Assembly (NCBI GenBank): GCA_964628065.1
Contig: CAZVLM010000001.1
Coordinates: 9,357-73,356, forward strand
DNA length: 64,000 nt
Source: an uncultured Candidatus Saccharibacteria bacterium
GTDB lineage: Bacteria; Patescibacteriota; Minisyncoccia; Phycocordibacterales; UBA1006
Direction: 5' to 3'
How positions within the stretch are numbered: the stretch's first letter is position 1; every line of letters begins with the position of its first letter. The notes beneath the pieces were generated by a model. It had not been told where the DNA came from. It saw only the letters and a program-made list of their open reading frames with translations, and made no database searches. The position numbers and the translations under genes are program-made. Shown here piece after piece: positions 76-64,000 of this stretch.

Positions 76-109
76 ATGGAAATTATATCATAAACTCTCA
101 ATAAGATTA

Positions 110-195
110 CCCCGCCTTGCTGCGTCCTTCCGTAGCCTCTGGCGAAGGAGGAAATAAGGCGGGGTCGACTGGCCGTAGGCCAGCGGGGGCGGTGG
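110..195. repeat. GC-rich palindromic mini-element (copy A). CCCCGCCTT...AAGGCGGGG hairpin plus a GCGGGGGCGGTGG module.
   Basis: A ~85-nt GC-rich island in AT-rich DNA. It is an inverted copy of the element at 631..684 and shares a module with the elements at 51.2 kb. Confidence 0.6.
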
Positions 196-334
196 TTACT
201 AAAGGATCAGATAGTGAAGCATAAAAGATGCGGCGACCAAAAAATAACTTATATTCATTCAAGATTCTCCTTAATGATTTCAATTACTTTCTCTATATTA
301 TTCCTAATTGATTCATTTTTAAATCGTAATACTT

Positions 335-517
335 TTATGCCAAATCGAGAATGTATCCACTTACACTGTGCTGACGTCGAAACTTAAACCCTGTTGACGA
401 CCCTCTTAGCTCCTGCCAAAGCAGTCCCTCTTCCGGTGTTGGATTATTACGAAGATACCTTCTTCTTTGAAGAAGTCTTTTACTATTATGAACTCGTTCT
501 GGTGGTTTTTTATCCAT
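335..517 (-). pseudogene. Truncated DUF559 (Vsr-like endonuclease-domain) protein remnant
   Basis: The 60-aa ORF ..RRRYLRNNPTPEEGLLWQELRGSSTGFKFRRQHSVSGYILDLA matches the N-terminal half of DUF559 proteins and stops after ~60 aa, where full length is ~110-130 aa. It is flanked by inverted GC-rich elements. Confidence 0.45.
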
Positions 518-630: not shown

Positions 631-684
631 GCCACCGCCCCCGCCGGCTTCGCCGAGCGACCCCGCCTTATTCAAGGCGGGGTG
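631..684. repeat. GC-rich palindromic mini-element (copy B, inverted relative to A)
   Basis: CCACCGCCCCCGCCGGCTTCGCCGAGCGACCCCGCCTTATTCAAGGCGGGG. It contains a perfect CCCCGCCTT/AAGGCGGGG hairpin. The 20-mer GCTCGGCGAAGCCGGCGGGG (reverse complement) is shared with 51255..51275. Confidence 0.6.
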
Positions 685-2777: not shown

Positions 2778-3008
2778 TTAAGGTCGTTTTCTTGTTATGA
2801 GCCATATAAATGCATACCATATTAACAATAATACAATAAATGCCACGAGCTTGTGGTCTTGTACCCACGACGTATACATATGCATCGTTAATGAAAAACC
2901 TTTGAAAAAACCTATTATGTTTGCATGCAAGTTAATCAGTATCAAAGATACTGCTGCGAGAAATAGTGAAGCCGTTAATTTAATTCCGTATTTTTTATAA
3001 AAATCCAT
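2778..3008 (-). CDS. Small membrane protein (hypothetical)
   Basis: 76 aa hydrophobic ORF. Confidence 0.3.
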   Translation of the reverse strand: MDFYKKYGIKLTASLFLAAVSLILINLHANIIGFFKGFSLTMHMYTSWVQDHKLVAFIVLLLIWYAFIWLITRKRP

Positions 3009-3010
3009 AT

Positions 3011-3547
3011 TTATATAGTTAAATATCTCAAAAGAACGAGCGCGCTCCGTTCTTCACTCATTTCCTTTAGGCACATCTCTCGGGCTCTTTCTACAGACAC
3101 TACTTCGGTGACAATATCCTCTCCTTCTTCTAGTTCTTGAGTTTCTTTCTCGAATTCGTTCACGACAAAATAGAACAAGTCCCATGTTACCGTGGCGCCA
3201 CATACTGATTTATGGAAGAAAGACAGGTCTTTTACAATAATTCCCATTTCTTCTTTTGCTTCTTTGATTGCAGCAGCTTTGGCAGCCTCAATAATATCCG
3301 CTCCTGACTTAAGAAATTCATTATACTCGCCGAGCGTATCGAATACCTTTCCTCCGGGAAGATGGTAATCAAATCCATTTAATTCATGGCGAAATTCTTT
3401 CGAAAGGATGATGCCGCCTTCCGTTGGGACAATAAGTCGCACGCCTGGCGACCTGCGAGCCAACTCAAACGTCTTTTCTTTGCCGTTAACTTCAACTTTC
3501 TTTTCAACGACTTCTATTATTTTCCCTTGGTAAGTGATAGTTTCCAT
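3011..3547 (-). CDS. NUDIX hydrolase
   Basis: Nudix box GGKVFDTLGEYNEFLKSGADIIEAAKAAAIKEAKEEMG (GX5EX7REUXEEXGU-like). Confidence 0.7.
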   Translation of the reverse strand: METITYQGKIIEVVEKKVEVNGKEKTFELARRSPGVRLIVPTEGGIILSKEFRHELNGFDYHLPGGKVFDTLGEYNEFLKSGADIIEAAKAAAIKEAKEEMGIIVKDLSFFHKSVCGATVTWDLFYFVVNEFEKETQELEEGEDIVTEVVSVERAREMCLKEMSEERSALVLLRYLTI

Positions 3548-8376: not shown

Positions 8377-11300
8377 TTAATTTCCCAAAATCACCTTCGC
8401 CCTCTTACAAAACTCACATTCGCTATTTGCCCCATAAGACTTCGCCACACAAGGTCGGTCCATCCACTCCCCGCTTGAAACAAGTGACTGATAGTCTGCA
8501 ATGTCTTTGATAAGGAGCTCTACTTCTGCATTGCTAATATGCGCAGAATACAATGCGTTTTTATCTCCTTTTTCAGATTCAAGGAAAAGCAATCGTGATT
8601 GGTCTACATGAGCATCCTTTCCTGTCCCTTCAAGAAGGTAAGAATACATGGCGAGTTGTCTCAAGTAACTCGACATGCGACCTTCATCATCACGCTTTTC
8701 AATCATGCCAGTCGTCTTACTGCTTCCTGTTTTAAAGTCGGTTACCGTCATCGTTCCATCAGGAAACCGTTCAGTAAGGTCGATCTTTCCGTACATTGTT
8801 AAATTTGAAAACTGCGGATCGCGATATGAAACGCTTCGTTCTGATTGGCGATCTTTCGCTAGATTAGGATAATAATTTTCAATCCAACCCGAGACGGCAG
8901 TCCATGCGTCTTTACCAAGTCGTGCAATATCTCGCATATCAAGCACCCCTTCACGCTGAAGCGATGTCATGATAATCTTCTTAATTTCAACCTCTGCTGG
9001 AAGCGTATTCTCTTTCAATAAATGCTCAATCGTAACATGTACCGCCGATCCAAGCGCAAGCGAAACACCTTTTACCTCGGGAAGTTTCAAAAAATTTCTA
9101 AAGTACCACTTCCAAGGACACTCAAAAAAGTTATTAAGGAGTGTTACGGATACTCGATTTTCCGCAAATGACTCTTTTACGAATTCCTTTACGGCTGTTT
9201 TTATATCTTCTTCTGGAGAAACAGCAGGTTTCAATGCGTACAATCGAGGATCATTTTCGATGATACGCTTCTCGTTTTCTTCTGCGTCAATTTTCTCAAA
9301 ATGATCTACTGGCAATTCTTCAACGATTCGCGATAGTGTAATGTCGCTTCCACTATCACTGTTTAATGCATATGAAATAGTTGCGTATCGTTTTGCACGA
9401 GTAAGTGCCACATATAACTCCCTTTTTGCGGTCATCACATCACGCGCCGCAATGCGCTCTTCTATTTTTTCAGGAAGCGTAAAGGCGCTCCTTTTTTCTG
9501 ACATCACTACTTCCTCGTTCATGTGACCGATCCATACATACTCGTACTCAAGTCCTTTTGATTTGTGCAAAGTCATGACTCGAATGCCTGATTCCGCTGC
9601 GAAAGCTGCTACGCTGATTTGGGTTCCGTACGTTGCAAGGCGCCCTAGGTACGCAATAAATTCCTTAAGGGTTCCATTAGGATGTTTTGCATACCACGCT
9701 TCCGAACTTAAAATAAGGCTTCGAACTACCTCGATAGATCTGAGTAATGCTTTATGCCCGTGTGATCGATCAATTAATAACTCATTCCCCAACGTTGAAA
9801 TAACACATGGAATCGTTTCGTGGGTTAGTTTGTTTATCCAATGACTAAGGTCTGTTCCCCATTTTACGATAGGGTCTTGATCATGGAACATGCCTGCGTC
9901 TTTTTGGTAATCAATTAAGTCTTGTACAGTTACTTTGTCTGACTTTTTTGTTACTCTTAAAAACTTGTAAGCCCTCATTGGATCGATACCGCTTGTAGCA
10001 TCAAGGAGTGACTCAGTAATTAATACTGAATCATCTGGATTGGCCAAAATTCCAAGGACTCGGATAAAGCTTTTAGCTTCGGGAAGTGTATACAGCGAAA
10101 CACTGGTTTCTGACTGTGCAGGAAGCCCCATGTCACGGAGCGTAGAAACAGCTGAGCGTACTTGGTAATTCTTAGGAAGAAGTAGTGCACATTCGTCTGG
10201 TGAAACGCCTTGGTCTATCTGCTTTTTAAAATAAAGCCCCGCACCTATTATTTCATCACGGGAAAATCGGAATTGTGAAAGATTGATCTTTTCATCACCT
10301 TTTCGATTACTTTTTAAGGCATCAGTTGTAATAGAGCTTTTTAAAAGCGTATCCGCGAGGCTTAATACGGGCGCTGTTGATCGATAGTTTTCCTGAAGCG
10401 TTATTAACTGAGCCTTTCCAAACGCGTGCCTAAACTCGGAAAAATAATCAAGTGATGCTCCGGAAAATCCATAAATAAGCTGGCGATCGTCCCCCACCAC
10501 GAAAATATTTGGAAGTTCTATTTCCTGCCATACCGCCTTCAAGAAATTATTTTGCACCAACGAAGAATCCTGATGCTCATCTACCAGCACGTATTGATAA
10601 TTTTCGTAAATATCAGCACGCACATCCTCATACTCTTCTACGAGTTGTACGACATATTCTAAGGCGTCATCATAGTCCATGAGATTCGCGTCTTTTTTGG
10701 CAGATTCATATTGTCTATAAAATGAGACGACTTCTTTGGTTCGCGACAATGATTCAATCTTTTTTTCTATTTCTTTCTTAAGTTGTCCTTTGCTTGGCCC
10801 TCGTGATGAAATACTGTCTGGATCATTCTTCAAAAATTCTATGTCGCGATCTACTTCTAATGAAAAAGATTCAGGTGAAAGTCGCTCACGCTTCATCAGG
10901 GAAATTAATTGTTTTAAGTCGCCGAAATATTTTGCAGGATCGGTTCGCGGACGAATGTATTCCCATTCTCCTTCTTGTAAAAGACTGTCCACCATTGCAA
11001 CACTTTGATTATCATCAAGGAGTTCGGGAATGTGATCGAAGCCAAGGAGGTTAAAATGCTTTTGTACGAGATCAATCGCAAATCCGTGGAAGGTTGAAAT
11101 TTTAATATCTCGAGCTGTTGTTCCGATATAGCTTTCGAGACGAGCTCGCATAGCAGCGACTCCGGATCGGGTAAACGTAAGGCAAAGAATACTTGAAGGC
11201 AATGTGTCTGTCTTCTTAAGAATATTAGCAATGCGAAGAGCCAACACCTGCGTCTTGCCGGTTCCTGGACCTGCCACAACCATTACGGGACCTTCTATGG

Positions 11301-11848: not shown

Positions 11849-12952
11849 TTATTTCAAAACAACCTTCCCATTTTTAAGTATCAAAAACCCCTCCCTCTCC
11901 AACCCGCTCACAATAGTTTCAATTCTATCCTTATCATCAGAAAGACTTTCCAATTTCTCTTCGAGCTTCTCAATCAAGAGCTTTTTCTTTTCTAAAAGAA
12001 TTTCCAAAATCTTTCCGCGAATCTCGCGATTACTTCCTTCAAATTTTGATTGCTTGGTATAGTGCCTACTTTTCTTATTAGGATTAGGAATCGATTTTCC
12101 TAAATACGACCCGTAGTCCATGAGCGCCCAATACCATTCACGAGGGTTTTCTTTGTCGACAGTTTTTTCTATGAGTTTTAGAAGTTCCCTATCATGCACC
12201 CCAAACACACCCCGCACTTCGTGTCGACCCTCTCTAAAAGAGAGGGTTTGCTCCGATTGGAGTTCGGTCTCGACGGAGACTGCCCTCTCTTTTAGAGAGG
12301 GTGCCACGCGAAGCGGGCGGGTGTGTTTTGACTGGGACTCCGAGAAAAAATGATGCAAGTACACTCGTCGAATATTTGTCTCAATCATCGAGACAGGCTG
12401 ATTGTATGCAAACGCAGAAATCGCTCCCGCTGTATACGGACCGATTCCTGGTAGTGAAAGAATATCTTCATACGTCTGGGGAAATTTTCCTTTAAATCTT
12501 TGCATAATAATTTCCGCTGACCTTTTCATGCGAATTGCCCTCGAATTGTATCCAAGCCCTTTCCATAGCCGAAGTACGTCCGACTGCTTAGCCTCTGCAA
12601 GTGCCTTCACTGTTGGAAATTCCTTCATCCACTTATTGAAAAAATCTACTACTCTGTCTACTTGTGTCTGCTGAAGCATAATCTCCGAAACGTACACATT
12701 GTACGGCTTCGTATTCTTTCTCCACGGCAACTCGTGGCGTCTATTTGCATGATAATAATCCCAGACAGTTTTTTGGAATTTTTTGAGGTCGGAAGGCTTC
12801 ATGTTGGCAATTATACCAGAAACGAAAATCGCCAGACTTCCTTTAGGAAGTCTGGCGATTATTTTACAGTTGTACAAAGAATTACTCAGCCAACTCCTGG
12901 CCGATAAGCGCGCCGCGTCCGCCGCTGTGCACGTAGTCGTCAGAAAACTCAA
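11849..12952 (-). CDS. HhH-GPD DNA glycosylase (MutY/Nth-like). Likely true start is the ATG at 12802. It carries a ~40-aa in-frame insertion encoded by a GC-rich palindromic element.
   Basis: LPWRKNTKPYNVYVSEIMLQQTQV...LPGIGPYTAGAISAFAYNQPVSMIETNIRRV gives the HhH-GPD signature. Residues ~209-251 (KHTRPLRVAPSLKERAVSVETELQSEQTLSFREGRHEVRGVFG) are encoded by element D. No Fe-S Cys cluster is present. Confidence 0.6.
   Translation of the reverse strand: MSFLTTTCTAADAARLSARSWLSNSLYNCKIIARLPKGSLAIFVSGIIANMKPSDLKKFQKTVWDYYHANRRHELPWRKNTKPYNVYVSEIMLQQTQVDRVVDFFNKWMKEFPTVKALAEAKQSDVLRLWKGLGYNSRAIRMKRSAEIIMQRFKGKFPQTYEDILSLPGIGPYTAGAISAFAYNQPVSMIETNIRRVYLHHFFSESQSKHTRPLRVAPSLKERAVSVETELQSEQTLSFREGRHEVRGVFGVHDRELLKLIEKTVDKENPREWYWALMDYGSYLGKSIPNPNKKSRHYTKQSKFEGSNREIRGKILEILLEKKKLLIEKLEEKLESLSDDKDRIETIVSGLEREGFLILKNGKVVLK
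12203..12329. repeat. GC-rich palindromic mini-element (copy D), in frame inside the glycosylase gene
   Basis: Terminal inverted repeats AAACACACCCCGCACTTCGTG / CACGCGAAGCGGGCGGGTGTGTTT. Two internal hairpins: CCCTCTCTAAAAGAGAGGG and CCCTCTCTTTTAGAGAGGG. Confidence 0.7.
12827..12860 (-). terminator. Perfect 15-bp stem hairpin (AATCGCCAGACTTCC-TTTA-GGAAGTCTGGCGATT) followed by a U-tract on the minus strand
   Basis: Inverted repeat read directly from the sequence. It lies downstream of the ORF ending at 12882 and ~25 nt upstream of the glycosylase ATG at 12802. Confidence 0.5.
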
Positions 12953-19288: not shown

Positions 19289-20659
19289 TTATTTAGAAAT
19301 GCCACTAGAGTACAAGAATCGCTTCACTCGACCATTTCCAAGACCTGCAACAGCGTACAAAAATGTTCTTGTTACCACAATTGCTGAGATCATAGAAATA
19401 ATAACTCCAAGTCCAAAGGTGAGGGCAAATCCCTGAATAAGAGTAGAGCCAAACCAGAAAAGGATAATCGCTGTAAGAATACTTGAAGTATTTCCATCTC
19501 GAATTGAGTTCCATGCTCGGTCAAAACCAATCTTAATAGCTTCCATGATTGATTTTCCATCATGCATTTCTTCCTTCATTCGTTCAAAGATCAGAATATT
19601 TGCATCCACTGCCATACCAAGACTAATAATAAATCCTGCCATTCCTGCTGATGTAAGCGTGATAGGAATAAGTTTAAAGAGAGCAAGTGAAATAATAGCG
19701 TAAATTACCAATGAGATTGCTCCAAGGAGTCCTGGAAGTCGGTACCAGAAAATAAGAAGGAATGCGATCGCAAGGAATCCAATAAGTCCTGCAAGAATTC
19801 CCGCATGGATAGCACCCGTACCAAGTGTAGGTCCGATCGTGTCTGTTGAAATGAGTGCAACAGGCACTGGAAGCGCCCCTGAATTAAGTCGTCCTACCAA
19901 CTGCTTTGCTTCTGTTGCAGTAAAATTTCCTGTAATCACAGCCTGTCCTCCTGCAATTTTCTGATTCACGGTTGGCGTAGAAATAGCTGCTCCGTCTAAG
20001 TAAATAGCAACTGACTTTCCTACGTTTTTTGCAGTAATATCTTCGAAGATTTTTGCACCTTCTGAATTAAACTGGAGTGAAACAATGGGAGCTTGCGTTG
20101 TTGGATCAAACTGAACTGAGGCTCGAGAAAGGTACTGCCCTGTCAAAGGTGTTGGAGCTGAAACGAATCGTTCTGAGGCCCCTACTGCGGCCGAAATATC
20201 AATTTTACCATCCTTAATTGAAGCTGCATCAAGGGTAATCTCCTGAACACCATCCTTGGGTGCTTTATAGTTAGGGTTTTCCACTTTGAATTCTAGGAGT
20301 GGTGTCTGACCAATCATAGCAATCGCCTGCTTTACATCAGTCACACCAGGAAGTTCCACAACCAAATGGTATTCCTTATTTCCTGAAAGGCTTGAGGTTT
20401 CCGTTGAAACGCGAGGCTCAGAAACTCCAAACAAGTTTACTCGTCGTTCAATAATATCTCTAAGTGAGTTCATTGAATTACCAACATCCCCTGCTGGAAC
20501 CTTAGAAACATCTGCGTTGTACACCAAATAACTTCCACCTGAAAGGTCGAGTCCTAGCTTAAAAGGCTTTTTATTTGTTACCTGAGACCAATAAACAAAG
20601 TATCCAATAGCTGCTGCAATGATTAATAAAAGTAATGCTAAAATTCGTTTTTTCCACAT
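19289..20659 (-). CDS. secD: Protein translocase subunit SecD
   Basis: LGLDLSGGSYLVY motif, large periplasmic loop, C-terminal TM bundle. Confidence 0.85.
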   Translation of the reverse strand: MWKKRILALLLLIIAAAIGYFVYWSQVTNKKPFKLGLDLSGGSYLVYNADVSKVPAGDVGNSMNSLRDIIERRVNLFGVSEPRVSTETSSLSGNKEYHLVVELPGVTDVKQAIAMIGQTPLLEFKVENPNYKAPKDGVQEITLDAASIKDGKIDISAAVGASERFVSAPTPLTGQYLSRASVQFDPTTQAPIVSLQFNSEGAKIFEDITAKNVGKSVAIYLDGAAISTPTVNQKIAGGQAVITGNFTATEAKQLVGRLNSGALPVPVALISTDTIGPTLGTGAIHAGILAGLIGFLAIAFLLIFWYRLPGLLGAISLVIYAIISLALFKLIPITLTSAGMAGFIISLGMAVDANILIFERMKEEMHDGKSIMEAIKIGFDRAWNSIRDGNTSSILTAIILFWFGSTLIQGFALTFGLGVIISMISAIVVTRTFLYAVAGLGNGRVKRFLYSSGISK

Positions 20660-24574: not shown

Positions 24575-24690
24575 AGTTCTCAGTTCTGGCGACACCTACT
24601 CTCCCTCTTACGAAGTACCATTGGTGTAGCGGCGCTTAACGACTCTGTTCGAAATGGGAAGAGGTGTGACCACCGTACTAAATCACCAGA
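24575..24690 (-). rRNA. rrf: 5S ribosomal RNA
   Basis: The reverse complement reads ..GGTGGTCACACCTCTTCCCATTTCGAACAGAGTCGTTAAGCGCCGCTACACCAATGGTACTTCGTAAGAGGGAGAGTAGGTGTCGCCAGAAC, with helix I closing as GTTCTGGTG / CGCCAGAAC. Confidence 0.75.
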
Positions 24691-24799: not shown

Positions 24800-28205
<3,406 letters not shown>

Positions 28206-31038: not shown

Positions 31039-32574
31039 TTAAGGCAAAACTGTTATCTGCTTAACAAGTGAATTGTTCGCTTCATTCGATTCATTTACTA
31101 AATTGTATCCCCCAGTTGTGCCCATTGCATAGTCATCCACTCGAACTGTAAGTCCAAAAGTTCCACTTACTCCTAATATGTTTGGCGTCGTAGACTGATA
31201 CACGTCCACATCATACGTCTGCCCCACCGCCAGCGTAACAGGATTCATTAATTGCTGTGCGCCATAACTTACGCCATTTTTAAGGAAACTAATCTGAGTT
31301 CCGCGCGGAAGGGTTGCCGTCGCACTGCCAATATTTTTAATCGTTGCATGCACCTTAAAGTTGGTATTAGGTGTTGGTTCTTTCGTCGGGTCGATGATAA
31401 CTCGTACATGCGGAGATGAGGGGGTCCATGTGAAGTCTTCTACGATTAGGTCGGGTTTTGTGATCGAAACAGGGAAATTTGTACATGGTGCAAACTTTTG
31501 AATGCGAGTATTTCCTCCGTCCCCCACATAAACATTTCCATAACTATCTATGGCAACACTAAACGCTCCCCTGAACTGCCCGTCTGCTGAACCATACGTT
31601 CCAAATTGAGTAAGGTAAATACCATTTCCTGTAAATTTTTGGATACGTGAATTATTCCTATCCACAACATACACATTGCCGACTTGGTCTGTCGCAATAC
31701 CGAATGGTTGATTAAATTGACCATTGCCACTACCGTATGTTCCCCATTTACTTATGTATGCTCCGGAAGATGTAAATTTTTGGATACGGTTATTTCCCGT
31801 ACCAACACTATCTGCAACAAAAATATTTCCGAAGATGTCTGCGGCAATACCGAGATTTCCTTGAAACTGACCGTTTCCAGTACCGTACGTTCCCCACTTA
31901 CTTAAATAAACTCCATTTGAATTAAATTTCTGAATTCTGTAATTACCTGTATCTGATACATAAATATTTCCCATGGAATCAATTGCAATTCCCCAGGGAT
32001 TTTTAAACTGTCCATCTGCAGAACCATAAGTTCCCCACTGGGTTATATAGGTACCAGTAGAAGAAAACTTCTGAATACGATGATTAGCACTATCTACAAC
32101 GAAGATATTTCCAAAAGAGTCTACTGCAATACCTTCCGGCATGGCAAATTGACCATTTCCGGAACCACTTCCTCCAAACTGACTAAGATATGTACCTCCT
32201 GAGGAAAACTTTTGAATAAACCCCGTGGTACTGTTATCTGATACATAAACATTATTTGTTTGGTCAACAAAAACCGCACCAACGGAACCAGGGAACAATC
32301 CATTTCCAGAAAACCCAACTCCTCCCCACTTTGTAACAAACTTATACCCACTCGCCGGACATGATAACGGAGCAGTAACCACCGGCCCAGTTGGAATACC
32401 TGCCGGTGTCGGCGTGTTTTGAATAGAGGCAATCTGATTATCCGACAATTTTGTAACTGCGACAGCCCGGTATAACGAAGCGGCATTACTCCCCTGGTAA
32501 TTTTTAACTACTAAAAACGCTCCAGCCGTGATGACTGCGAGCGCAAAAACTGCGAGTGTTAGTTTCTTTTTCAT
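31039..32574 (-). CDS. Secreted NHL-repeat beta-propeller protein with C-terminal CARDB-like domain (paralog 1)
   Basis: Signal peptide, repeated ..GNIYV.D..N.RIQKF.. NHL motifs, and a C-terminal PDLIVEDFTWTPS...NTNFKVHATIKNIGSATA (CARDB-like). Confidence 0.65.
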   Translation of the reverse strand: MKKKLTLAVFALAVITAGAFLVVKNYQGSNAASLYRAVAVTKLSDNQIASIQNTPTPAGIPTGPVVTAPLSCPASGYKFVTKWGGVGFSGNGLFPGSVGAVFVDQTNNVYVSDNSTTGFIQKFSSGGTYLSQFGGSGSGNGQFAMPEGIAVDSFGNIFVVDSANHRIQKFSSTGTYITQWGTYGSADGQFKNPWGIAIDSMGNIYVSDTGNYRIQKFNSNGVYLSKWGTYGTGNGQFQGNLGIAADIFGNIFVADSVGTGNNRIQKFTSSGAYISKWGTYGSGNGQFNQPFGIATDQVGNVYVVDRNNSRIQKFTGNGIYLTQFGTYGSADGQFRGAFSVAIDSYGNVYVGDGGNTRIQKFAPCTNFPVSITKPDLIVEDFTWTPSSPHVRVIIDPTKEPTPNTNFKVHATIKNIGSATATLPRGTQISFLKNGVSYGAQQLMNPVTLAVGQTYDVDVYQSTTPNILGVSGTFGLTVRVDDYAMGTTGGYNLVNESNEANNSLVKQITVLP

Positions 32575-32609: not shown

Positions 32610-34181
32610 TTAAGGCAAAACTGTTATCTGCTTAACAAGTGAATTGTTCGCTTCATTCGATTCATTTACTAAATTGTATCCCCCAGTTGTACCCATTGCA
32701 TAGTCATCAACTCGAACTGTAAGTCCAAACGTGCCAGCTGTTCCGAGAATGTTCGGAGTCGTAGACTGGTACACATCTACATCAAACGTTTGACCCACCG
32801 GAAGCGTAACAGGATTCATCAATTGCTGCGCACCGTGACTTACTCCATTTTTAAGGAAACTTATCTGAGTTCCACGCGGAAGCGTTGCAGTCGCACTACC
32901 GATATTTTTAATCGTTGCATGCACCTTAAAGTTAGTGTTCGGGGTCGGTTCTTTTGTTGGATCAGTAATAATTCGTACGTGAGGAGATGAGGGAGTCCAT
33001 GTAAAGTCTTCTACAATTAGGTCAGGTTTAGTAATACTTAATGGAACTGAAGGGATTCGAACGGGAGTACACGGAGAAAATTTTTCAATTCGGTTATTAG
33101 CTGAATCTGAAACATATATATCTCCTTGGGGACTAACAGCAATACCTACAGGAGCTCTAAACTGACCATTACCATAACCACTACTTCCCAACTGAGCTAT
33201 ATAAGCTCCATTCTGATCAAATTTCTGGACGCGCTCTTGATAATTATCCACCACATAAATATTTCCATAAGAATCAACATCGATACCTACTGGATCCATA
33301 AATTTTCCATTTCCAACATATCCCCTGCTACCGATCTGTGAAAGATATTGCCCTGTTGAGTTAAACTTTTTAACCCCATAACCAGTAAGGCTCGTGATAT
33401 AAATGTTTCCCGCTGTATCAAGAAATACATCGTTGTCTACACCTGTTGGATTTGAAAATTGCCCGCTTGCAGAACTTCCCGTCCCAAACTGGCTTAAATA
33501 TCCTCCATTCGACTTAAACTTTTGAACACGATTATTATACCTATCAACAACATAAATATTTCCCGCTGTATCGATCGCAATACCTCCGGGGCCATTAAAT
33601 TGTCCATTATTAGCGCCAAGCGTTCCCCATTGGGTAATATAATTTCCCTGAGAATCAAATTTTTCAACTCTATTGTTACCAGTATCAACTACATAAACAT
33701 TTCCTGTCATATCAATTGCAATGCCTCCTAAAGAGTCACCTAATGCGAAATTTGGAACCTGAAATTGTCCATTCGCTGATCCTTGCGTTCCCCACTGTAA
33801 TATATATTGACCACTTGAATTAAACTTCTGAATACGATTGTTACGAGCATCATGAACATAAACATCCCCCGATGAATTAACGGCTATATATCCGGGGATA
33901 GCGAACTGGCTATTGCCTGAACCATAGACGCCCCACTGAGAAACATAATTATACCCGCTCGCCGGACATGATAACGGAGCAGTAACCACCGGCCCAGTTG
34001 GAATACCTGCCGGTGTCGGCGTGTTTTGAATAGAGGCAATCTGATTATCCGACAATTTTGTAACTGCGACAGCCCGGTATAACGAAGCGGCATTACTCCC
34101 CTGGTAATTTTTAACTACTAAAAACGCTCCAGCCGTGACGACTGCGATCGCAAAAACTGCGAGTGTTAGTTTCTTTTTCAT
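32610..34181 (-). CDS. Secreted NHL-repeat beta-propeller protein with C-terminal CARDB-like domain (paralog 2)
   Basis: Same architecture as paralog 1. The first ~78 aa and last ~140 aa are near-identical to it at the nucleotide level, while the central repeats are divergent. Confidence 0.65.
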   Translation of the reverse strand: MKKKLTLAVFAIAVVTAGAFLVVKNYQGSNAASLYRAVAVTKLSDNQIASIQNTPTPAGIPTGPVVTAPLSCPASGYNYVSQWGVYGSGNSQFAIPGYIAVNSSGDVYVHDARNNRIQKFNSSGQYILQWGTQGSANGQFQVPNFALGDSLGGIAIDMTGNVYVVDTGNNRVEKFDSQGNYITQWGTLGANNGQFNGPGGIAIDTAGNIYVVDRYNNRVQKFKSNGGYLSQFGTGSSASGQFSNPTGVDNDVFLDTAGNIYITSLTGYGVKKFNSTGQYLSQIGSRGYVGNGKFMDPVGIDVDSYGNIYVVDNYQERVQKFDQNGAYIAQLGSSGYGNGQFRAPVGIAVSPQGDIYVSDSANNRIEKFSPCTPVRIPSVPLSITKPDLIVEDFTWTPSSPHVRIITDPTKEPTPNTNFKVHATIKNIGSATATLPRGTQISFLKNGVSHGAQQLMNPVTLPVGQTFDVDVYQSTTPNILGTAGTFGLTVRVDDYAMGTTGGYNLVNESNEANNSLVKQITVLP

Positions 34182-37433: not shown

Positions 37434-38402
37434 TTATTGAGTCTTAACAGCCACAAGTCGCGCTCTCCGAATATATGAAGTTCCATTTGGCCACGAACCC
37501 CAAAGTAAGTCATAAGTACTTACGGTAGTAACTTGAACTTTTTTTAATGCATACCACGAACCAAACGTGCTGGTATTTGAATACACTATTCCATAAGCAA
37601 TCTCAGAAGTATCCCTCATGATTTGTGCGCGCACTCCTGCGTCAACCGTTGGATTGTATGCTTCCAAATAACCTTGGAGTAAGTAATTGCCTGGTGGAAG
37701 AGTTAACGATACGCGCACTTGAAGAGTTTGCGTAGTAATACTAGAGATTGGCTCCATTTCCGCGTAATAAACTTGAGGAATAGCATCAGCCCCTGTCGGA
37801 CCAGTAACGCCAATTGCGCCACTCAATCCAGTATTGCCTGGCAATCCTTGAGGGCCGGTTGGGCCTTGGATTCCTGCAATACCGGTCGGTCCTGTCGGAC
37901 CGACCGAGCCAGCTAATCCGTCCGTTCCGGACGGACCCGTTGCGCCAGTAATACCAGTTGCACCAGTTGGGCCTTGGGCACCCATTGGACCGATTGCACC
38001 CGTAGGTCCCACCATGCCATTACCTGAAAAAAGTGCATACGGAACACTCAGAAGTTCTGTGGTTCCCATATCCATAAAATTCCCTCCCCCATTTTGATCA
38101 AGAAATACCTGTAAATATTTAAATCCTGATCCCCAATCAACCGTTGCAAGATTGCCACTACTACCAATTTGGGTCGTCACCAATCCGAACTGGTTAGTGA
38201 TACTAGAAACAATTTCACTGTAGACAATCGTTCCTGTTGATGATGCTTCATGAATAACAAATTTCAGTGTGATCACGCGATTTGCAATAATAACACCTTG
38301 TGCATCCCGCACTACTGCTTGATAATTCATTTTTTGAGGAATCTGAGATTTTAGAAGAATATGCAACATTCCCAATAAGGCGACAAATGTAATTTTTTTC
38401 AT
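37434..38402 (-). CDS. Collagen-like triple-helix-repeat protein with globular N-terminal and C-terminal domains
   Basis: A ~75-aa run of uninterrupted G-X-Y triplets ([74 protein letters not shown]) and a signal peptide. Confidence 0.6.
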
Positions 38403-51069: not shown

Positions 51070-51300
51070 CCTCACCCCCAGCCCCTCTCCAACACACCCG
51101 TCACTCGCTCCGCTCGTGTACACCCTCTCTAAAAGAGAGGGTTGGCTCCGTCGAGATTATGTACCAATAGAAACTACCGCTTATCTCATAGAGTTAAGCG
51201 GTAGTTTCATTTCAAAATTGAGTCTCGATGTCTACCCTCTCTTTTAGAGAGGGACGCTCGGCGAAGCCGGCGGGGTGTGTTTGTCCGTCGGGTGAGGACA
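51070..51300. repeat. GC-rich composite palindromic element (copy E) with nested inverted repeats
   Basis: Outer IR CCTCACCC / GGGTGAGG. Inner TIR ACACACCCG.. / ..CGGGGTGTGT. Hairpins CCCTCTCTAAAAGAGAGGG, CCCTCTCTTTTAGAGAGGG and AAACTACCGCTTA..TAAGCGGTAGTTT. Confidence 0.7.
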
Positions 51301-53483: not shown

Positions 53484-53600
53484 AGAACACATCACAAGAA
53501 CACACCCGCCCGCTTCGCGAGGCACCCTCTCTAAAAGAGAGGGTAGACCATCGAGATTTTTTTCAGGAAGGAACATTCTTGTGATGTGTTCTTTTCTGAC
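53484..53600. repeat. GC-rich palindromic half-element (copy F) bracketed by a 16-bp inverted repeat
   Basis: ACACACCCGCCCGCTTCGCGAGGCACCCTCTCTAAAAGAGAGGG, flanked by GAACACATCACAAGAA ... TTCTTGTGATGTGTTC. Confidence 0.6.
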
Positions 53601-54844: not shown

Positions 54845-54886
54845 CTATAAACGACACTATAAACTTAAAATGTCTTTTATGCAATG

Positions 54887-55013
54887 CCCTCATCCGCCCT
54901 TCGGGCACCTTCTCCCTTTGGGAGAAGGCTACACTTTCGACTTCAGTTGGCACCAATAAAAATGTCTGCCCCTCTCCCTTTGGGAGAGGGTGCCCGAAGG
55001 GCGGGAGAGGGTT
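54887..55013. repeat. GC-rich palindromic mini-element (copy G) immediately upstream of ftsK
   Basis: TIRs CCGCCCTTCGGGCACC / GGTGCCCGAAGGGCGG. Internal hairpins CTTCTCCCTTTGGGAGAAGG and CCCTCTCCCTTTGGGAGAGGG. Confidence 0.65.
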
Positions 55014-55051
55014 GGAATATAAGGGTTTTTACTGATATACTTATAGGACAA

Positions 55052-57313
55052 ATGGCAAAAAAAGATCTGAAACAAAAGAAAAATTCTGTTGAAAAAGCTC
55101 CAGAGGAATCTAGCAATCCTCGTATTAAGCGATCTATTATCGCGATCATTTTACTTGCGATTACGGTAGTTATTATCCTCGGAGCCTTTGATGCGGCAGG
55201 TATTGCCGGTCATTTTATCTATCATTCGGTGCTTAAATTTTTGGTAGGATTTGGTGTTATCTTAGTGCCTATCTTCCTTGTCGTTTATGCGGTAAACCTT
55301 CTTAAGAACCAGCCTCACGAGTGGTCATGGGTTGAGTATGTTAGCTCTTCCCTTTTGATGATTTCCATCCTTGGTTTCATCCAAATTATTTCTCCAGGAA
55401 TTAAAGGCGGTGGCGTTATTGGGTACGGCATAGGAACCGTTATGACGAAGATTTTTGATGTCTATGCCGGCGCAACAATATTAGGTGCCGTTGCACTTAT
55501 TTCGACATTGGTACTTATTGATGAGGAATTAAGAATGCCTGCGTTCCTTAAAAATATGTTTTCTAAGTCTTCAAAAGAAGAGTCATTTGTTGATGAAGAT
55601 TTTGTACTCACAAAAGCAGATTTGAATGAATTACCACCAGCTCCAATAGCGGACCCTCTCCTTGCAGGAGAGGGTGGACGGCGCCAGCCGCCGGGTGAGG
55701 TTGTGAAAGCTGAAGTACCCGAAGAACCTCGGATTGCTAAAAAAGAAAAAGTTGAGGACGAGTTCATTACTGCAAATGCCGTATTTTCAGAAACATATGA
55801 ATACCCTCCAACCAGCCTCCTTGGTCAGTCATCAGGCAAGCCATCCGTTGGAGACATCAAAGCGAACGCGAACTTGATCAAGCGAACCCTTTTGAACTTT
55901 GGAATTGATGTGGAAATGGATGAAGTTTCAATCGGGCCAACCGTGACTCGCTACGCTTTGAAACCAGCGGAAGGTATTAAGCTGACCCGAATTCTCGCAC
56001 TCAAATCTGACCTTGCACTCGCCCTTGCCGCCCACCCTATTCGAATCGAAGCCCCTATCCCTGGCAAGTCATTAGTAGGTATCGAAATTCCGAACAGAAC
56101 TCTTGAGAATGTAGGTCTTGGAACCCTGCTTGATGAAGACTCATTCCAGAATTCTCCTAACCGTCTTCAGGTTGCCCTTGGAAAGGGGGTGGCTGGAAAG
56201 TCTTACTTTGCAAACTTAGCAAAAATGCCGCACCTTTTGATTGCCGGAACTACAGGATCAGGAAAGTCGGTTACTATGCACAACTTAATCCTGTCGCTCT
56301 TATATAAGAACGGACCTGAAGACCTCCGGGTTATTATGATCGACCCAAAACGAGTAGAACTTACTCTTTATAATGATATCCCCCACCTTCTAACACCTGT
56401 TATTAAAGAATCAAAGAAGGCTATCCTTGCCCTTAAATGGGCCGCGAAGGAAATGGAACGACGGTATGACATTCTTGAAAATTGCTCATGCCGAGACATT
56501 CAGTCCTATCATGCAAATATCCAAGACCCCTACTATGCTAAGACCAAGAAAAAAAGTCGCGATGACGATGATACAGATACCAAGGCGCCGGAGCGAATGC
56601 CTTACATCGTAGTATTTATTGAAGAGTTGGCCGACATCATGCAGGCATATCCTCGCGAATTGGAAGCCGGTATTGTCCGACTTGCCCAAATGTCCCGAGC
56701 CGTGGGTATTCACCTCATCCTTTCAACCCAGCGACCATCCGTGAACGTTATTACCGGACTTATTAAAGCCAATATTCCATCACGATTAGCACTTCAAGTA
56801 GCCTCTCAGATTGACTCTCGAACAATTTTGGATGCGCCAGGCGCCGAATCGCTTCTTGGTAAGGGAGATATGCTCTATCAAGGTGCTGACATGTCTAAGC
56901 CTGAACGTATGCAGTGTGCAAACGTAGATGAAAACCAAGTTAAGAAAGTCGTTGCCTTTATTAAGAAGCACAACGTTTCCCTTCCTGACGAAATCGCCTT
57001 GGGCGAAGTATTGGATGATGACCGATCAATTGTTTCAGCTAATCTTGAAAGCGACGAGGACGACGAACTTTATGAAGATGCTCGAGCCTGCGTTATTGAG
57101 GCCGGCAAAGCTTCAACCAGCTATATTCAGCGAAAATTGAAGGTTGGCTACTCTCGAGCAGCGCGCCTCATCGACCTTTTGGAGGAACGCGGAGTGGTTG
57201 GTCCTGCGGACGGCGCGAAACCTAGAGAAGTACTTAGTGGTGGATCTTCTCCTGAAATTGGGTTATCCACAACCGATGTTATTGATAGATTAAACGAGGA
57301 GAGCGAGGTATAA
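55052..57313 (+). CDS. ftsK: DNA translocase FtsK (start reassigned to the ATG at 55052)
   Basis: N-terminal TM helices, Walker A GTTGSGKS, Walker B/RecA-like motor, C-terminal gamma wHTH (..YIQRKLKVGYSRAARLIDLLEERGVVGP..). The track ORF start at 54884 reads through repeat element G. Confidence 0.9.
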   Translation: MAKKDLKQKKNSVEKAPEESSNPRIKRSIIAIILLAITVVIILGAFDAAGIAGHFIYHSVLKFLVGFGVILVPIFLVVYAVNLLKNQPHEWSWVEYVSSSLLMISILGFIQIISPGIKGGGVIGYGIGTVMTKIFDVYAGATILGAVALISTLVLIDEELRMPAFLKNMFSKSSKEESFVDEDFVLTKADLNELPPAPIADPLLAGEGGRRQPPGEVVKAEVPEEPRIAKKEKVEDEFITANAVFSETYEYPPTSLLGQSSGKPSVGDIKANANLIKRTLLNFGIDVEMDEVSIGPTVTRYALKPAEGIKLTRILALKSDLALALAAHPIRIEAPIPGKSLVGIEIPNRTLENVGLGTLLDEDSFQNSPNRLQVALGKGVAGKSYFANLAKMPHLLIAGTTGSGKSVTMHNLILSLLYKNGPEDLRVIMIDPKRVELTLYNDIPHLLTPVIKESKKAILALKWAAKEMERRYDILENCSCRDIQSYHANIQDPYYAKTKKKSRDDDDTDTKAPERMPYIVVFIEELADIMQAYPRELEAGIVRLAQMSRAVGIHLILSTQRPSVNVITGLIKANIPSRLALQVASQIDSRTILDAPGAESLLGKGDMLYQGADMSKPERMQCANVDENQVKKVVAFIKKHNVSLPDEIALGEVLDDDRSIVSANLESDEDDELYEDARACVIEAGKASTSYIQRKLKVGYSRAARLIDLLEERGVVGPADGAKPREVLSGGSSPEIGLSTTDVIDRLNEESEV
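55652..55700. repeat. GC-rich palindromic mini-element (copy H), in frame within the ftsK linker region
   Basis: GGACCCTCTCCTTGCAGGAGAGGGTGGACGGCGCCAGCCGCCGGGTGAGG encodes ..DPLLAGEGGRRQPPGEV.. Confidence 0.6.
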
Positions 57314-63121: not shown

Positions 63122-63931
63122 TTAAACACTTAGATTAAAGAATTTTTGTGTATTTTTAAGGAGTTGCTGGCGCACATCTTCCTCATCCATATTTTTAAGT
63201 TCCGCAACCTTCTTCGCAACTTCTATCACCATCCATGGCTCGCACGGTTTTCCTCGATACGGTGCAGGCGCTGCAAATGGCGCATCTGTTTCTATCATGA
63301 GTGATTCAAGTGGTACTGCCTTTATCATTTCGTCATAATCTCGTGAAAAAGTAATCGGTCCATCAACGGAAACAGTAAAACCTGCGGAAACAATTGCTTC
63401 CATACATTCTTTTGATCCTGAGAAGAAATGGAAATTGGCACGCAGTGGTGCGGAATCCTCCTCTTGCCAAGAGGAGGTGCCGAGGCTCTGCGAGGCGGAG
63501 GAGTTTTCAAGAATTTTTAATGCATCATAATACGCATTATCACTCCCCTTCGATGCGCGCACATGAAGCATCAGTGGCTTGTTTACTTTCTTTGCGAGGG
63601 TAATATGCTTCTTAAAAATATCTTCTTGAATCTTTCGAGATTCGGGAGTGTCTTCATGAAAATAGTCGAGTCCGGTTTCGCCAATGGCGACTACTTTAGG
63701 ATTGAGGGCAAGTTTTTCTAGTTCACTCCAGCCACCATCCTCACCCGGTTCGCTGCGCGAACCACCCTCTCCACTATCGTGGAGAGGGTTACTGCAATAG
63801 CATGGATGGATTCCCACTGTTGCCCAGCAGGTGTCAGGATACGCCTCAGCGATCTCAACCGCTGTTTTGGAGGTCTCAAGCCCTGTTCCAACCGTGATCG
63901 TCGCCACACCCAAATCTTTCATTTTAGCCAC
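63122..63931 (-). CDS. TatD-family metal-dependent hydrolase carrying two in-frame GC-rich palindromic insertions
   Basis: ..TVGIHPCY...VVAIGETGLDY...LMLHVRAS...FHFFSGS...IETDAPF.. are TatD motifs. Extra segments SNPLHDSGEGGSRSEPGEDGGW and NSSASQSLGTSSWQEEDSAPLRA are encoded by the elements at 63737..63790 and 63448..63505. Confidence 0.8.
   Translation of the reverse strand: MAKMKDLGVATITVGTGLETSKTAVEIAEAYPDTCWATVGIHPCYCSNPLHDSGEGGSRSEPGEDGGWSELEKLALNPKVVAIGETGLDYFHEDTPESRKIQEDIFKKHITLAKKVNKPLMLHVRASKGSDNAYYDALKILENSSASQSLGTSSWQEEDSAPLRANFHFFSGSKECMEAIVSAGFTVSVDGPITFSRDYDEMIKAVPLESLMIETDAPFAAPAPYRGKPCEPWMVIEVAKKVAELKNMDEEDVRQQLLKNTQKFFNLSV
63448..63505. repeat. GC-rich palindromic mini-element (copy I1), in frame inside TatD
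   Basis: CCTCCTCTTG-CCAAGAGGAGG hairpin plus GCCGAGGCTCTGCGAGGCGGAGG. Confidence 0.6.
63737..63790. repeat. GC-rich palindromic mini-element (copy I2), in frame inside TatD
   Basis: CCTCACCC GGTTCGC-TGC-GCGAACC A CCCTCTCC-ACTATCGT-GGAGAGGG. Confidence 0.6.
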
Positions 63932-64000
63932 AATAGCCTCCTTATTTTCAGAAAGTGGTGAGAGGTTTAGGTGGGAGTGAATATCGAAATACTTGATAGT

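Follow-up and report, generated by a model that had tools for sequence, protein, structure and literature searches.

How did two GC-rich hairpin blocks come to lie in frame inside the intact gene of a TatD-family hydrolase? The question is raised by a stretch of 64,000 nucleotides of an uncultured Candidatus Saccharibacteria bacterium (contig CAZVLM010000001.1), referred to below as the window, at the end of which the gene is located. The best-supported reading is that the blocks descend from, or were mobilised in trans by, cassettes encoding a nuclease domain of the family DUF559. TatD is probably functional, with two solo copies of a GC-rich dispersed repeat in its gene, and the blocks are probably translated non-autonomous derivatives of an unspliced homing-type DUF559 cassette; a single level of confidence, somewhat better than even, covers this explanation as a whole.

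TatD gene and its two GC-rich blocks

The gene and its blocks occupy the following positions.

63122..64000, minus strand: intact gene of a TatD-family hydrolase, start codon just past the window end, product P0001 of 293 aa
63739..63788, minus strand: module of the triplex-motif type in site 1 of TatD, oriented in the sense of the gene, comprising main hairpin, second hairpin and tail, encoding ..NPLHDSGEGGSRSEPGED..
63457..63505, plus strand: module of the triplex-motif type in site 2 of TatD, oriented antisense, the gene strand encoding ..NSSASQSLGTSSWQEE..

The product matches the Pfam profile TatD_DNase (PF01026) with an E-value of 2.8e-69 over all positions of the profile (1-253 of 253), and solved TatD structures were matched in the PDB with an E-value of 1e-35. 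Its frame is open end to end, with no stop and no frameshift in the translation. The AlphaFold (AF2) model has a mean predicted local distance difference test (pLDDT) value of 84.7 and a target-normalised TM-score of 0.86 against solved TatD structures; pLDDT below 50 was found only at residues 71-88 and 175-181, which are the two insert segments. Site 1 is the beta3-to-alpha3 loop after the GIHPC motif (residues 71-88), and site 2 is the alpha5-to-beta6 loop before the ANFHFF motif (residues 175-181), so that the model and the structure comparison agree with the initial annotation in placing both insertions in loops, the only ones of low confidence. By TIM-barrel convention, read from topology and not from measured distances, site 1 would lie on the catalytic face of the barrel and site 2 on its back face. 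The inserts are predicted to form two disordered loops that leave the TIM barrel intact, and are presumably translated and harmless. The peptides spanning them are ..CSNPLHDSGEGGSR.. and ..SSWQEEDSAPLR...

Both blocks are among the sharpest GC islands of the window, the G+C content of which is 41%, and their inverted repeats are exact, as had been stated. The main hairpin of site 1 (63764-63789) reads ACCCTCTCCAC GATA GTGGAGAGGGT, with arms of 11 nt (63764-63774 / 63779-63789); its second hairpin (63747-63763) reads GGTTCGC GCA GCGAACC, with arms of 7 nt (63747-63753 / 63757-63763), and both pairs of arms are 100% complementary. The tail (63739-63746), GGGTGAGG, is the mirror of GGAGAGGG at 8/8 positions, and as single-stranded DNA the whole module folds with -20.6 kcal/mol (z -7.6). 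At site 2 the main hairpin (63457-63477) is CCTCCTCTT GCC AAGAGGAGG, the inverted-repeat arms 63457-63466 / 63468-63477 (CCTCCTCTTG/CAAGAGGAGG) are 100% complementary over 10 nt, the second hairpin (63479-63496) is degenerate, and the tail (63497-63505), GGAGGAGTT, mirrors AAGAGGAGG at 9/9 positions.

The reading frame is kept through both blocks, and the peptides quoted earlier are identical to the translation. The sizes given for the inserts, about 22 and about 23 aa, are too large: set against the closest homologues without an insert, TatD has a net excess of about 12 aa at site 1 and of 15-17 aa at site 2, and the native loop was partly replaced. The frame is kept because native loop codons were lost or replaced at the junctions, and the preference for lengths divisible by three that had been proposed is not seen, the ten modules of the strict scan of the window measuring 42, 44, 50, 46, 44, 42, 42, 48, 49 and 50 nt, with the TatD copies at 50 and 49 nt. 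The tolerance of the frame is explained by the arms, which consist only of pyrimidines or only of purines and cannot hold stop codons; 82% of the six frames of the modules are open, versus 64% for random genomic segments of equal length. Among the residues that open frames encode, P, G, L, R, S and E predominate, the arms being read as Pro/Leu/Ser and Gly/Glu/Arg.

The states of both sites were compared among the 120 best TatD homologues. Uninserted TatD proteins are 259-265 aa long, and 61 of the 120 homologues are unexpanded at both sites, which agrees with the view of the initial annotation that the blocks are in-frame insertions of a repeat family. That annotation also held that the presence of the same segments in homologues would speak against insertion. 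Expansions do occur, at site 1 in 34/120 and at site 2 in 52/120 homologues, but they carry different module variants in different orientations and reading frames; PLHDSGEGGSAEQNRVR, for example, lies at site 2 of some homologues, while the same kind of module is found at site 1 in the window. Module-bearing inserts are present in independent assemblies. In a syntenic relative (L003; TatD, S6, SSB … EF-P, RecA, FtsK) both sites are empty, and no modules were found in the 20.8 kb scanned. Three TatD genes with about 90% identity in DNA represent three states of site 2, namely, empty, filled with a 53-nt module (net +36 nt, variant a) and filled with a different module of 30 nt (net +24 nt, variant b). 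These varied states indicate recurrent insertion at hot spots and not an ancestral feature of TatD.

Three-part module and its copies in the window

When all copies of the window are lined up, the module is a directional unit represented by a main hairpin, a second hairpin acting as spacer, and a G-rich tail. In the main hairpin, a short loop separates a pyrimidine arm from a purine arm, as in CCCTCTCC…GGAGAGGG; the tail is a mirror of the latter in which G faces G, and A or T faces A. Such purine arm/tail pairs are AGAGAGGG/GGGTGTGT, GGGAGAAGG/GGATGAGGG, AAGAGGAGG/GGAGGAGTT and GGAGAGGG/GGGTGAGG. In both TatD blocks and eight other copies, the hairpins have perfect pyrimidine/purine stems of 8-11 bp and loops of 3-8 nt. 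Strict three-part modules were found ten times in the window and in none of 30 shuffles, and GC-rich perfect hairpins gave 42 records versus 0-5 in 20 shuffles.

The relation between arm and tail was scanned jointly in the window, in related loci of Patescibacteria and in 80 DUF559 loci. A perfect mirror tail is present on 160 of 375 purine-arm hairpin sides (42.7%), whereas exchange of downstream regions among hairpins with different arms gave a mean of 5.8% and a maximum of 10.2%. As the arms of the scan represent 51 different sequences, it is covariation that keeps arm and tail matched; opposite an A of the arm, the tail has A 171 times and T 145 times. The blocks had been described as palindromes: the hairpins are confirmed, but the plain palindrome was rejected, since the mirror tail is found on one side only of each hairpin and covaries with the arm, and the unit is a hairpin with a mirror-repeat tail. 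A direct-repeat reading of the tail was likewise discarded, as asymmetric arms gave 148 mirror-perfect versus 16 direct-perfect tails.

The spacers of the second hairpin fold better than shuffled sequences (mean z -2.65), and 14 of 25, by our reading of the listing, are C-GNA-G mini-hairpins, a DNA-specific and extraordinarily stable type (PMC13037366, PMC3201870). The second loop is a mini-hairpin of 12-23 nt in the window copies; over all scanned loci, most of which are DUF559 loci of other lineages, it is 3 nt long in 111 of 160 modules.

As read from the sequences, the arm/tail rules are those of the antiparallel purine-motif intrastrand DNA triplex, with the triads G.G-C, A.A-T and T.A-T, and the modules may fold in this way in vivo. 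Nearest-neighbour folding detects only the two hairpins. A G-quadruplex, formed by four G-runs, was also considered; it would not account for the A/T positions that match in mirror order. Conservation of the structure of the ends, and not of their sequence, suggests structure-specific recognition or structure-provoked breakage and repair.

Besides the TatD blocks, copies and a related pseudogene were found in the window as follows.

12205..12326: inverted module pair, 12205-12246 (minus) and 12283-12326 (plus), hairpins inside and tails outside, in frame in a MutY-like HhH-GPD glycosylase open reading frame (ORF) at 11849-12952 (minus)
55654..55701, plus strand: solo module in frame in the linker of FtsK (ORF 54884-57313)
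51092..51280: intergenic composite of 51092-51141 (minus) and 51235-51280 (plus) with a 92-nt spacer between them
53500..53543, minus strand: intergenic solo module
54887..55011: intergenic composite upstream of FtsK, 54887-54928 (minus) and 54970-55011 (plus)
632..683, minus strand: module with a C-containing arm, ACCCCGCCTT GAAT AAGGCGGGGT, second hairpin CGCTCGGC GAA GCCGGCG, tail GGGGCGGTGG, upstream of the DUF559 pseudogene
109..195, plus strand: module downstream of the DUF559 pseudogene, of the same arm/tail type as 632-683
250..517, minus strand: DUF559 nuclease pseudogene, with the N-terminal 60 aa in ORF 335-517, followed by a C-terminal remnant (..VLRFKNESIRNNIEKVIEIIKENLE*)

Twelve copies are thus present, ten of them detected by the strict scan, and five are in frame inside genes, namely, two in TatD, one in FtsK and two in the MutY-like gene, while the intergenic copies are often located at gene ends. 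In the MutY-like ORF, 45 aa are inserted between residues 151 and 154 of the adenine glycosylase 8uuc_A. The FtsK module is shared with the relative L001, where it has the same place (19525-19547). The arm/tail pairs of the composite at 54887-55011 are GGGAGAAGG/GGATGAGGG and GGGAGAGGG/GGGAGAGGG, a G-to-A change of the arm being matched at the mirrored position of the tail. The DUF559 pseudogene, from which the catalytic core has been lost by internal deletion, was identified by tblastn with the TatD-embedded DUF559 (E 9e-6) and by Pfam PF04480 (E 1.8e-8).

Two further observations concern the copies themselves. In the AGAGAGGG/GGGTGTGT subfamily, a conserved extension TCTCGAYGG(N)3-5 is located just upstream of the main hairpin (12247-12282, 51215-51234 and 53545-53560), so the true ends of the element may lie outside the triplex module. 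The module at 109-195 contains a 37-nt insert (119-155) in the loop of its main hairpin, with a small TCCTTC…GAAGGA hairpin of its own, possibly an element nested in an element.

DUF559 cassettes and the proposed origin of the blocks

A domain of the families PF04480/PF18741 was found by Pfam in frame at TatD site 1 in seven homologues. The cassettes are about 140 aa long, about 110 of which belong to DUF559, and in L001 and L086 they are flanked by inverted modules. In L001, the DUF559 domain of the cassette spans 10271-10618. The left end of the L001 cassette is ATCCCATCCCC AG CCCTTCCC AAA GGGAAGGG and the right end is CCCTTCCC TTT GGGAAGGG TC GGGGATGGGAC; both are modules of about 30 nt, inverted with tails outward and identical at 27/30 positions by our count. 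The nearest solved protein to DUF559 is the uncharacterised 3hrl (E 9e-20), and the domain is grouped in a single clade together with Vsr and 3r3p, the entry of a group I intron homing endonuclease (PMC3424549). In one homologue (P0105) DUF559 is shortened, and others keep one end or a tail only; together these remnants may plausibly represent a decay series down to solo modules.

One locus of Saccharibacteria (L006 10853-10876) contains a hairpin with a mirror tail on both strands (GGGGTGAGGT on each side), a form that would be expected after deletion of the cassette interior between the end hairpins.

A metagenome scan with the DUF559 domain gave 80 loci, sampled as relatives of the TatD-embedded domain. 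A strict module lies within 150 bp of DUF559 in 57 of them, and the density of modules is 3.75 per kb near the DUF559 gene versus 0.126 per kb elsewhere. Their orientation is strongly biased, with 36 modules on the minus and 9 on the plus strand upstream of DUF559, and 41 on the plus and 4 on the minus strand downstream; the two ends of one cassette often differ in arm sequence. The DUF559 ORF often ends inside the pyrimidine arm, as in ycjD of Escherichia coli and in P0200. In 60 of these 80 relatives, DUF559 lies in frame within a host protein, the open frame extending over more than 100 aa on either side.

Host proteins of the loci were named from flanking motifs. Leucyl-tRNA synthetase (LeuRS) is represented by 42 loci with the TTRPDT signature and seven more read as LeuRS from TTRADT/TTRPHT, and the insertion always lies just before TTRPDT. 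Other hosts are acetyl-CoA synthetase, with the insertion before YWCTADVGW (4 loci), HsdM-like proteins (3), isoleucyl-tRNA synthetase (IleRS; 2) and single cases of other enzymes. Cassettes recur at the same motif-adjacent sites of LeuRS, acetyl-CoA synthetase, IleRS and HsdM, and those at unrelated host sites all carry modules. Such recurrence, in conserved enzymes and beside their conserved motifs, follows the targeting logic known from inteins and homing endonucleases.

In one metagenomic locus with LeuRS of the Patescibacteria type (L093), DUF559 at 3001-3303 is accompanied by at least six further modules, translated as LPFGEDIGG, LPLGEDLGE, SPPLGEVGGG and similar peptides; a single essential gene can therefore hold many copies. 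The short contigs P0146, P0190 and P0122 encode fusions in which linkers encoded by modules join DUF559 to IspF, a LeuRS fragment and another protein, which makes the set of host genes wider than that of the 80 loci.

The DUF559 gene ycjD of E. coli K-12 ends with …CCCTCTCCCTGA. In its 3' flank (L087 5195-5440), the 3' end of ycjD is duplicated as a remnant that has a degenerate module; next comes an intact canonical BoxC, which lies 168 bp downstream of ycjD on the same strand and is the only module within the surrounding 10 kb. Among complete E. coli genomes, ycjD was found in 3378 of 5426, and BoxC-like matches were found in 5419 of 5426, at a median of 16 places. The strains lacking ycjD (38%) contain a 7.5-kb RND efflux operon between sapF and fabI (L171), with the break of homology about 40 nt beyond BoxC; with this operon in the sapF-fabI interval, no clean cassette boundary could be read from these strains.

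The parent of the blocks would be a selfish cassette, in which an ORF for a DUF559 domain of about 110 aa, a Vsr-like PD-(D/E)XK nuclease, lies between two inverted modules with tails outward. Such a cassette would sit in frame in host genes beside conserved motifs and would never be spliced out. The nuclease may nick or cut the folded ends or the empty allele, after which the cassette would be copied in the course of repair; solo or paired modules would be what remains once the stretch between the two end hairpins is deleted, and copies in permissive loops would simply be translated. In this scheme we infer that the modules are mobile, that nuclease and module are functionally linked and that copying proceeds as outlined.

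Several results weigh against this origin. The only DUF559 in the 64 kb is a pseudogene, the TatD of the window lacks the nuclease, and the modules flanking the pseudogene (104-692) point their tails inward, which is the minority arrangement. The spacer of the site 2 module is degenerate, and its fold as single-stranded DNA has a z of only -2.1. Comparison of empty and filled sites showed no target-site duplication and no sharp element ends, the native loop codons being replaced. In L085, one subfamily is present in four genes within 20 kb without any DUF559, with copies in RecO, in a class I aminoacyl-tRNA synthetase and at both TatD sites, and solo modules may accordingly spread alone or by another enzyme. 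The excess of E. coli genomes with BoxC over those with ycjD means that copies persist without the nuclease. The embedded fraction of the 80 loci belongs to relatives of the TatD-embedded domain and is not a property of DUF559 at large.

The main rival, which we consider unlikely, takes up part of these results: the modules would be an enzyme-independent repeat, similar to Rickettsia palindromic elements (RPE) or to REP sequences, spread by host recombination or replication slippage, and DUF559 would represent separate homing genes that land beside structured DNA or the breaks it provokes, as insertion sequence (IS) elements target REPs. The solo modules of L085, the many BoxC-like places in E. 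coli together with the absence of ycjD from 38% of genomes, the differing arms at the two ends of one cassette and the reported link of triplex motifs with local genome instability (PMC4666352) are all in its favour. It does not readily explain the outward tails on both sides of DUF559 (36:9 and 41:4), which look like terminal inverted repeats of one unit and not like random landing, the termination of the ORF within the pyrimidine arm (ycjD, P0200), or the presence of modules on all cassettes at unrelated host sites.

Two other explanations have much lower probability. A role at the RNA level, as mRNA stabiliser, attenuator or terminator, or removal of the segments from the TatD transcript, would agree with the high stability of the hairpins and the location of intergenic copies at gene ends, but is very improbable. 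The two TatD copies are oppositely oriented relative to transcription, purine-motif triplexes are reported not to form in RNA (PMC4666352), and GNA triloops closed by C-G are mini-hairpins of the DNA type (PMC3201870), which together place any structural role at the DNA level. Frames are open through every intragenic copy, in several different frames, which spliced-out segments would not require. Apart from rRNA and a group I intron, the window gave no match to an Rfam family, and the blocks were on this ground rejected as an intron or a known RNA family. Slightly less probable still is the absence of any mobile DNA, with the blocks being lineage-specific loop expansions selected for TatD function, parts of a pseudogene in decay, or an artefact of assembly. 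In its favour are the hydrophilic character of the inserts, their location in loops, and the beta3-alpha3 position of site 1, by which this site would be on the catalytic barrel face; the same modules, however, are intergenic and present in the FtsK and MutY-like genes of the window in both orientations, and their covariation obeys the pairing rules of nucleic acids and not codons. The inserts of independent assemblies speak against an artefact, and the full coverage of the Pfam profile by TatD, with no stop or frameshift, speaks against a pseudogene.

The derivation from DUF559 cassettes can be extended to a broader proposal, held as one whole with a little less than even confidence. DUF559 with triplex-motif ends may be a widespread class of selfish element living inside proteins without splicing, in which the nuclease domain would be expressed as an in-frame insert of essential enzymes (LeuRS, IleRS, acetyl-CoA synthetase, TatD). 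The ends would encode flexible Pro/Gly linkers, and the same ends, as DNA, would fold into triplexes serving as a structure-specific substrate or as a trigger of recombination; non-autonomous offspring of the element would be seen in the orphan BoxC/PIT/TMECO repeats of E. coli and in the many in-frame GC blocks of candidate-phyla-radiation proteins. Triplex-motif repeats and in-frame palindromic repeats (RPEs) are known already. What appears to be new is the occurrence of in-frame triplex repeats in Patescibacteria proteins, the variant with a hairpin spacer, and the association with an unspliced in-frame DUF559 cassette. In a literature search of incomplete coverage, no paper was found that ties DUF559 or YcjD to BoxC/triplex repeats or in-frame cassettes, which is absence of evidence only.

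Descent from such cassettes would explain some of the GC-rich extra loops that inflate proteins of small-genome Patescibacteria, and calls for caution among annotators and structure predictors, as such loops would be repeat DNA and not a lineage-specific function. BoxC/PIT/TMECO repeats have been without known origin or enzyme for about 30 years, and the DUF559 link, from candidate phyla to E. coli ycjD, makes their origin testable. If true, homing without an intron or intein would add a third mode in which a nuclease gene can reside within an essential gene, and the sites would provide naturally validated permissive insertion positions and linkers for protein engineering. Covariation that keeps a purine-motif triplex, together with DNA-type mini-hairpins, would be rare comparative evidence of selection on non-B DNA in bacteria.

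Other window features and known systems

The rRNA genes of the window are represented by a 23S rRNA gene (24826-28189, minus strand), about 440 nt longer than the bacterial model and containing a group I intron at 25122-25338 (Rfam, 57.4 bits), and a 5S rRNA gene at 24584-24690. This feature is often reported for candidate-phyla-radiation genomes. No tRNA genes were found in the 64-kb window. The adjacent ORFs 31039-32574 and 32610-34181 (minus strand), of 511 and 523 aa, share a nearly identical GC-rich stretch of 75 nt (32347-32421 and 33953-34028), which suggests tandem gene duplication or gene conversion. The ORF 37434-38402 (minus strand) encodes a signal-like segment at the N-terminus and a collagen-like stretch of Gly-X-Y repeats, about 70 residues long, which accounts for the GC-rich island at 37835-38018.

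Among known systems, the modules are closest in design to BoxC/PIT/TMECO, which Hoyne and Maher reportedly described in 2000 as intrastrand triplex motif repeats of E. coli, other Proteobacteria and Cyanobacteria. The consensus, CCCTCNCCC N3-6 GGGNGAGGG N3 GGGNGAGGG, forms a triplex in vitro (Holder et al. 2015, PMC4666352); the repeats are abundant in E. coli and other bacteria, are linked to local genome instability and have no known function or enzyme (PMC4666352). By their sequences, the window modules are assigned to this class, triplex formation having been demonstrated for the E. coli consensus only. Shared features are the three-block design with nearly the same core (CCCTCTCC.. / GGAGAGGG / GGGTGAGG), the same purine-motif rules for G facing G and for A or T facing A, and dispersal in many copies, the number of which varies between relatives and which are tied to variable loci. 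The window modules differ in the second loop, a GC mini-hairpin of 12-23 nt versus 3 nt in TMECO (1-6 nt in the ITxF search), and in arms of 7-11 nt. BoxC/TMECO repeats are described as intergenic, whereas 5 of the 12 window copies are in frame inside genes, and no enzyme is linked to BoxC, whereas the modules are associated with DUF559.

Rickettsia palindromic elements are said to have been described by Ogata et al. in 2000. They are mentioned in PMC1458961 and PMC10969869. RPEs are tolerated in surface segments and translated with the host protein, with no transposase in the element. The TatD blocks also lie in frame in a coding gene and lack a transposase, and they would be tolerated and translated likewise. 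Compared by description and not by sequence, RPEs differ in being 100-150 bp long, AT-richer and restricted to Rickettsia, while the host of the window is of the Patescibacteria type. To our knowledge, RPEs have neither a triplex-type mirror tail nor a linked nuclease gene.

[quoted passage not shown] With the REPIN/RAYT system (PMC3116915) the modules share short GC-rich structured repeats that occur as singlets and inverted doublets, and a flanked single-copy gene of the nuclease type; the logic of a non-autonomous repeat and a domesticated or selfish enzyme is the same. RAYTs, however, are HUH/IS200-type transposases and not PD-(D/E)XK nucleases, and REPs are extragenic and lack a mirror tail. 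The gene linked to the modules is DUF559 and not HUH, no search aimed at RAYT having been made in the window.

The Vsr-like/EDxHD homing endonucleases (I-Bth0305I, PDB 3r3p; 'fractured genes' family, PMC2677866) share the nuclease fold and the clade with DUF559 of TatD site 1 in relatives (PMC3424549), and their targets also lie in conserved genes beside conserved motifs. Their known members are found in group I introns or inteins, or free-standing beside split inteins, whereas no intron or intein goes with the DUF559 cassettes, which are in frame and would be read through, and which have triplex-motif ends. An intein was rejected for the TatD inserts and cassettes: a Hint domain is absent, the inserts are 12-17 aa and the cassettes about 140 aa long, and only PF01026, PF04480 and PF18741 were recorded.

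The nearest concept in the literature is the insertion in the methylase of phage ShiLan (PMC11855218), in which the frame is open, features of an intein or intron are absent, the insert is predicted to loop out, and a homing nuclease is associated. There, an HNH nuclease is encoded out of frame within the insert, whereas DUF559, which belongs to a different nuclease family, is in frame with its host, and the ends of its cassette are structured repeats.

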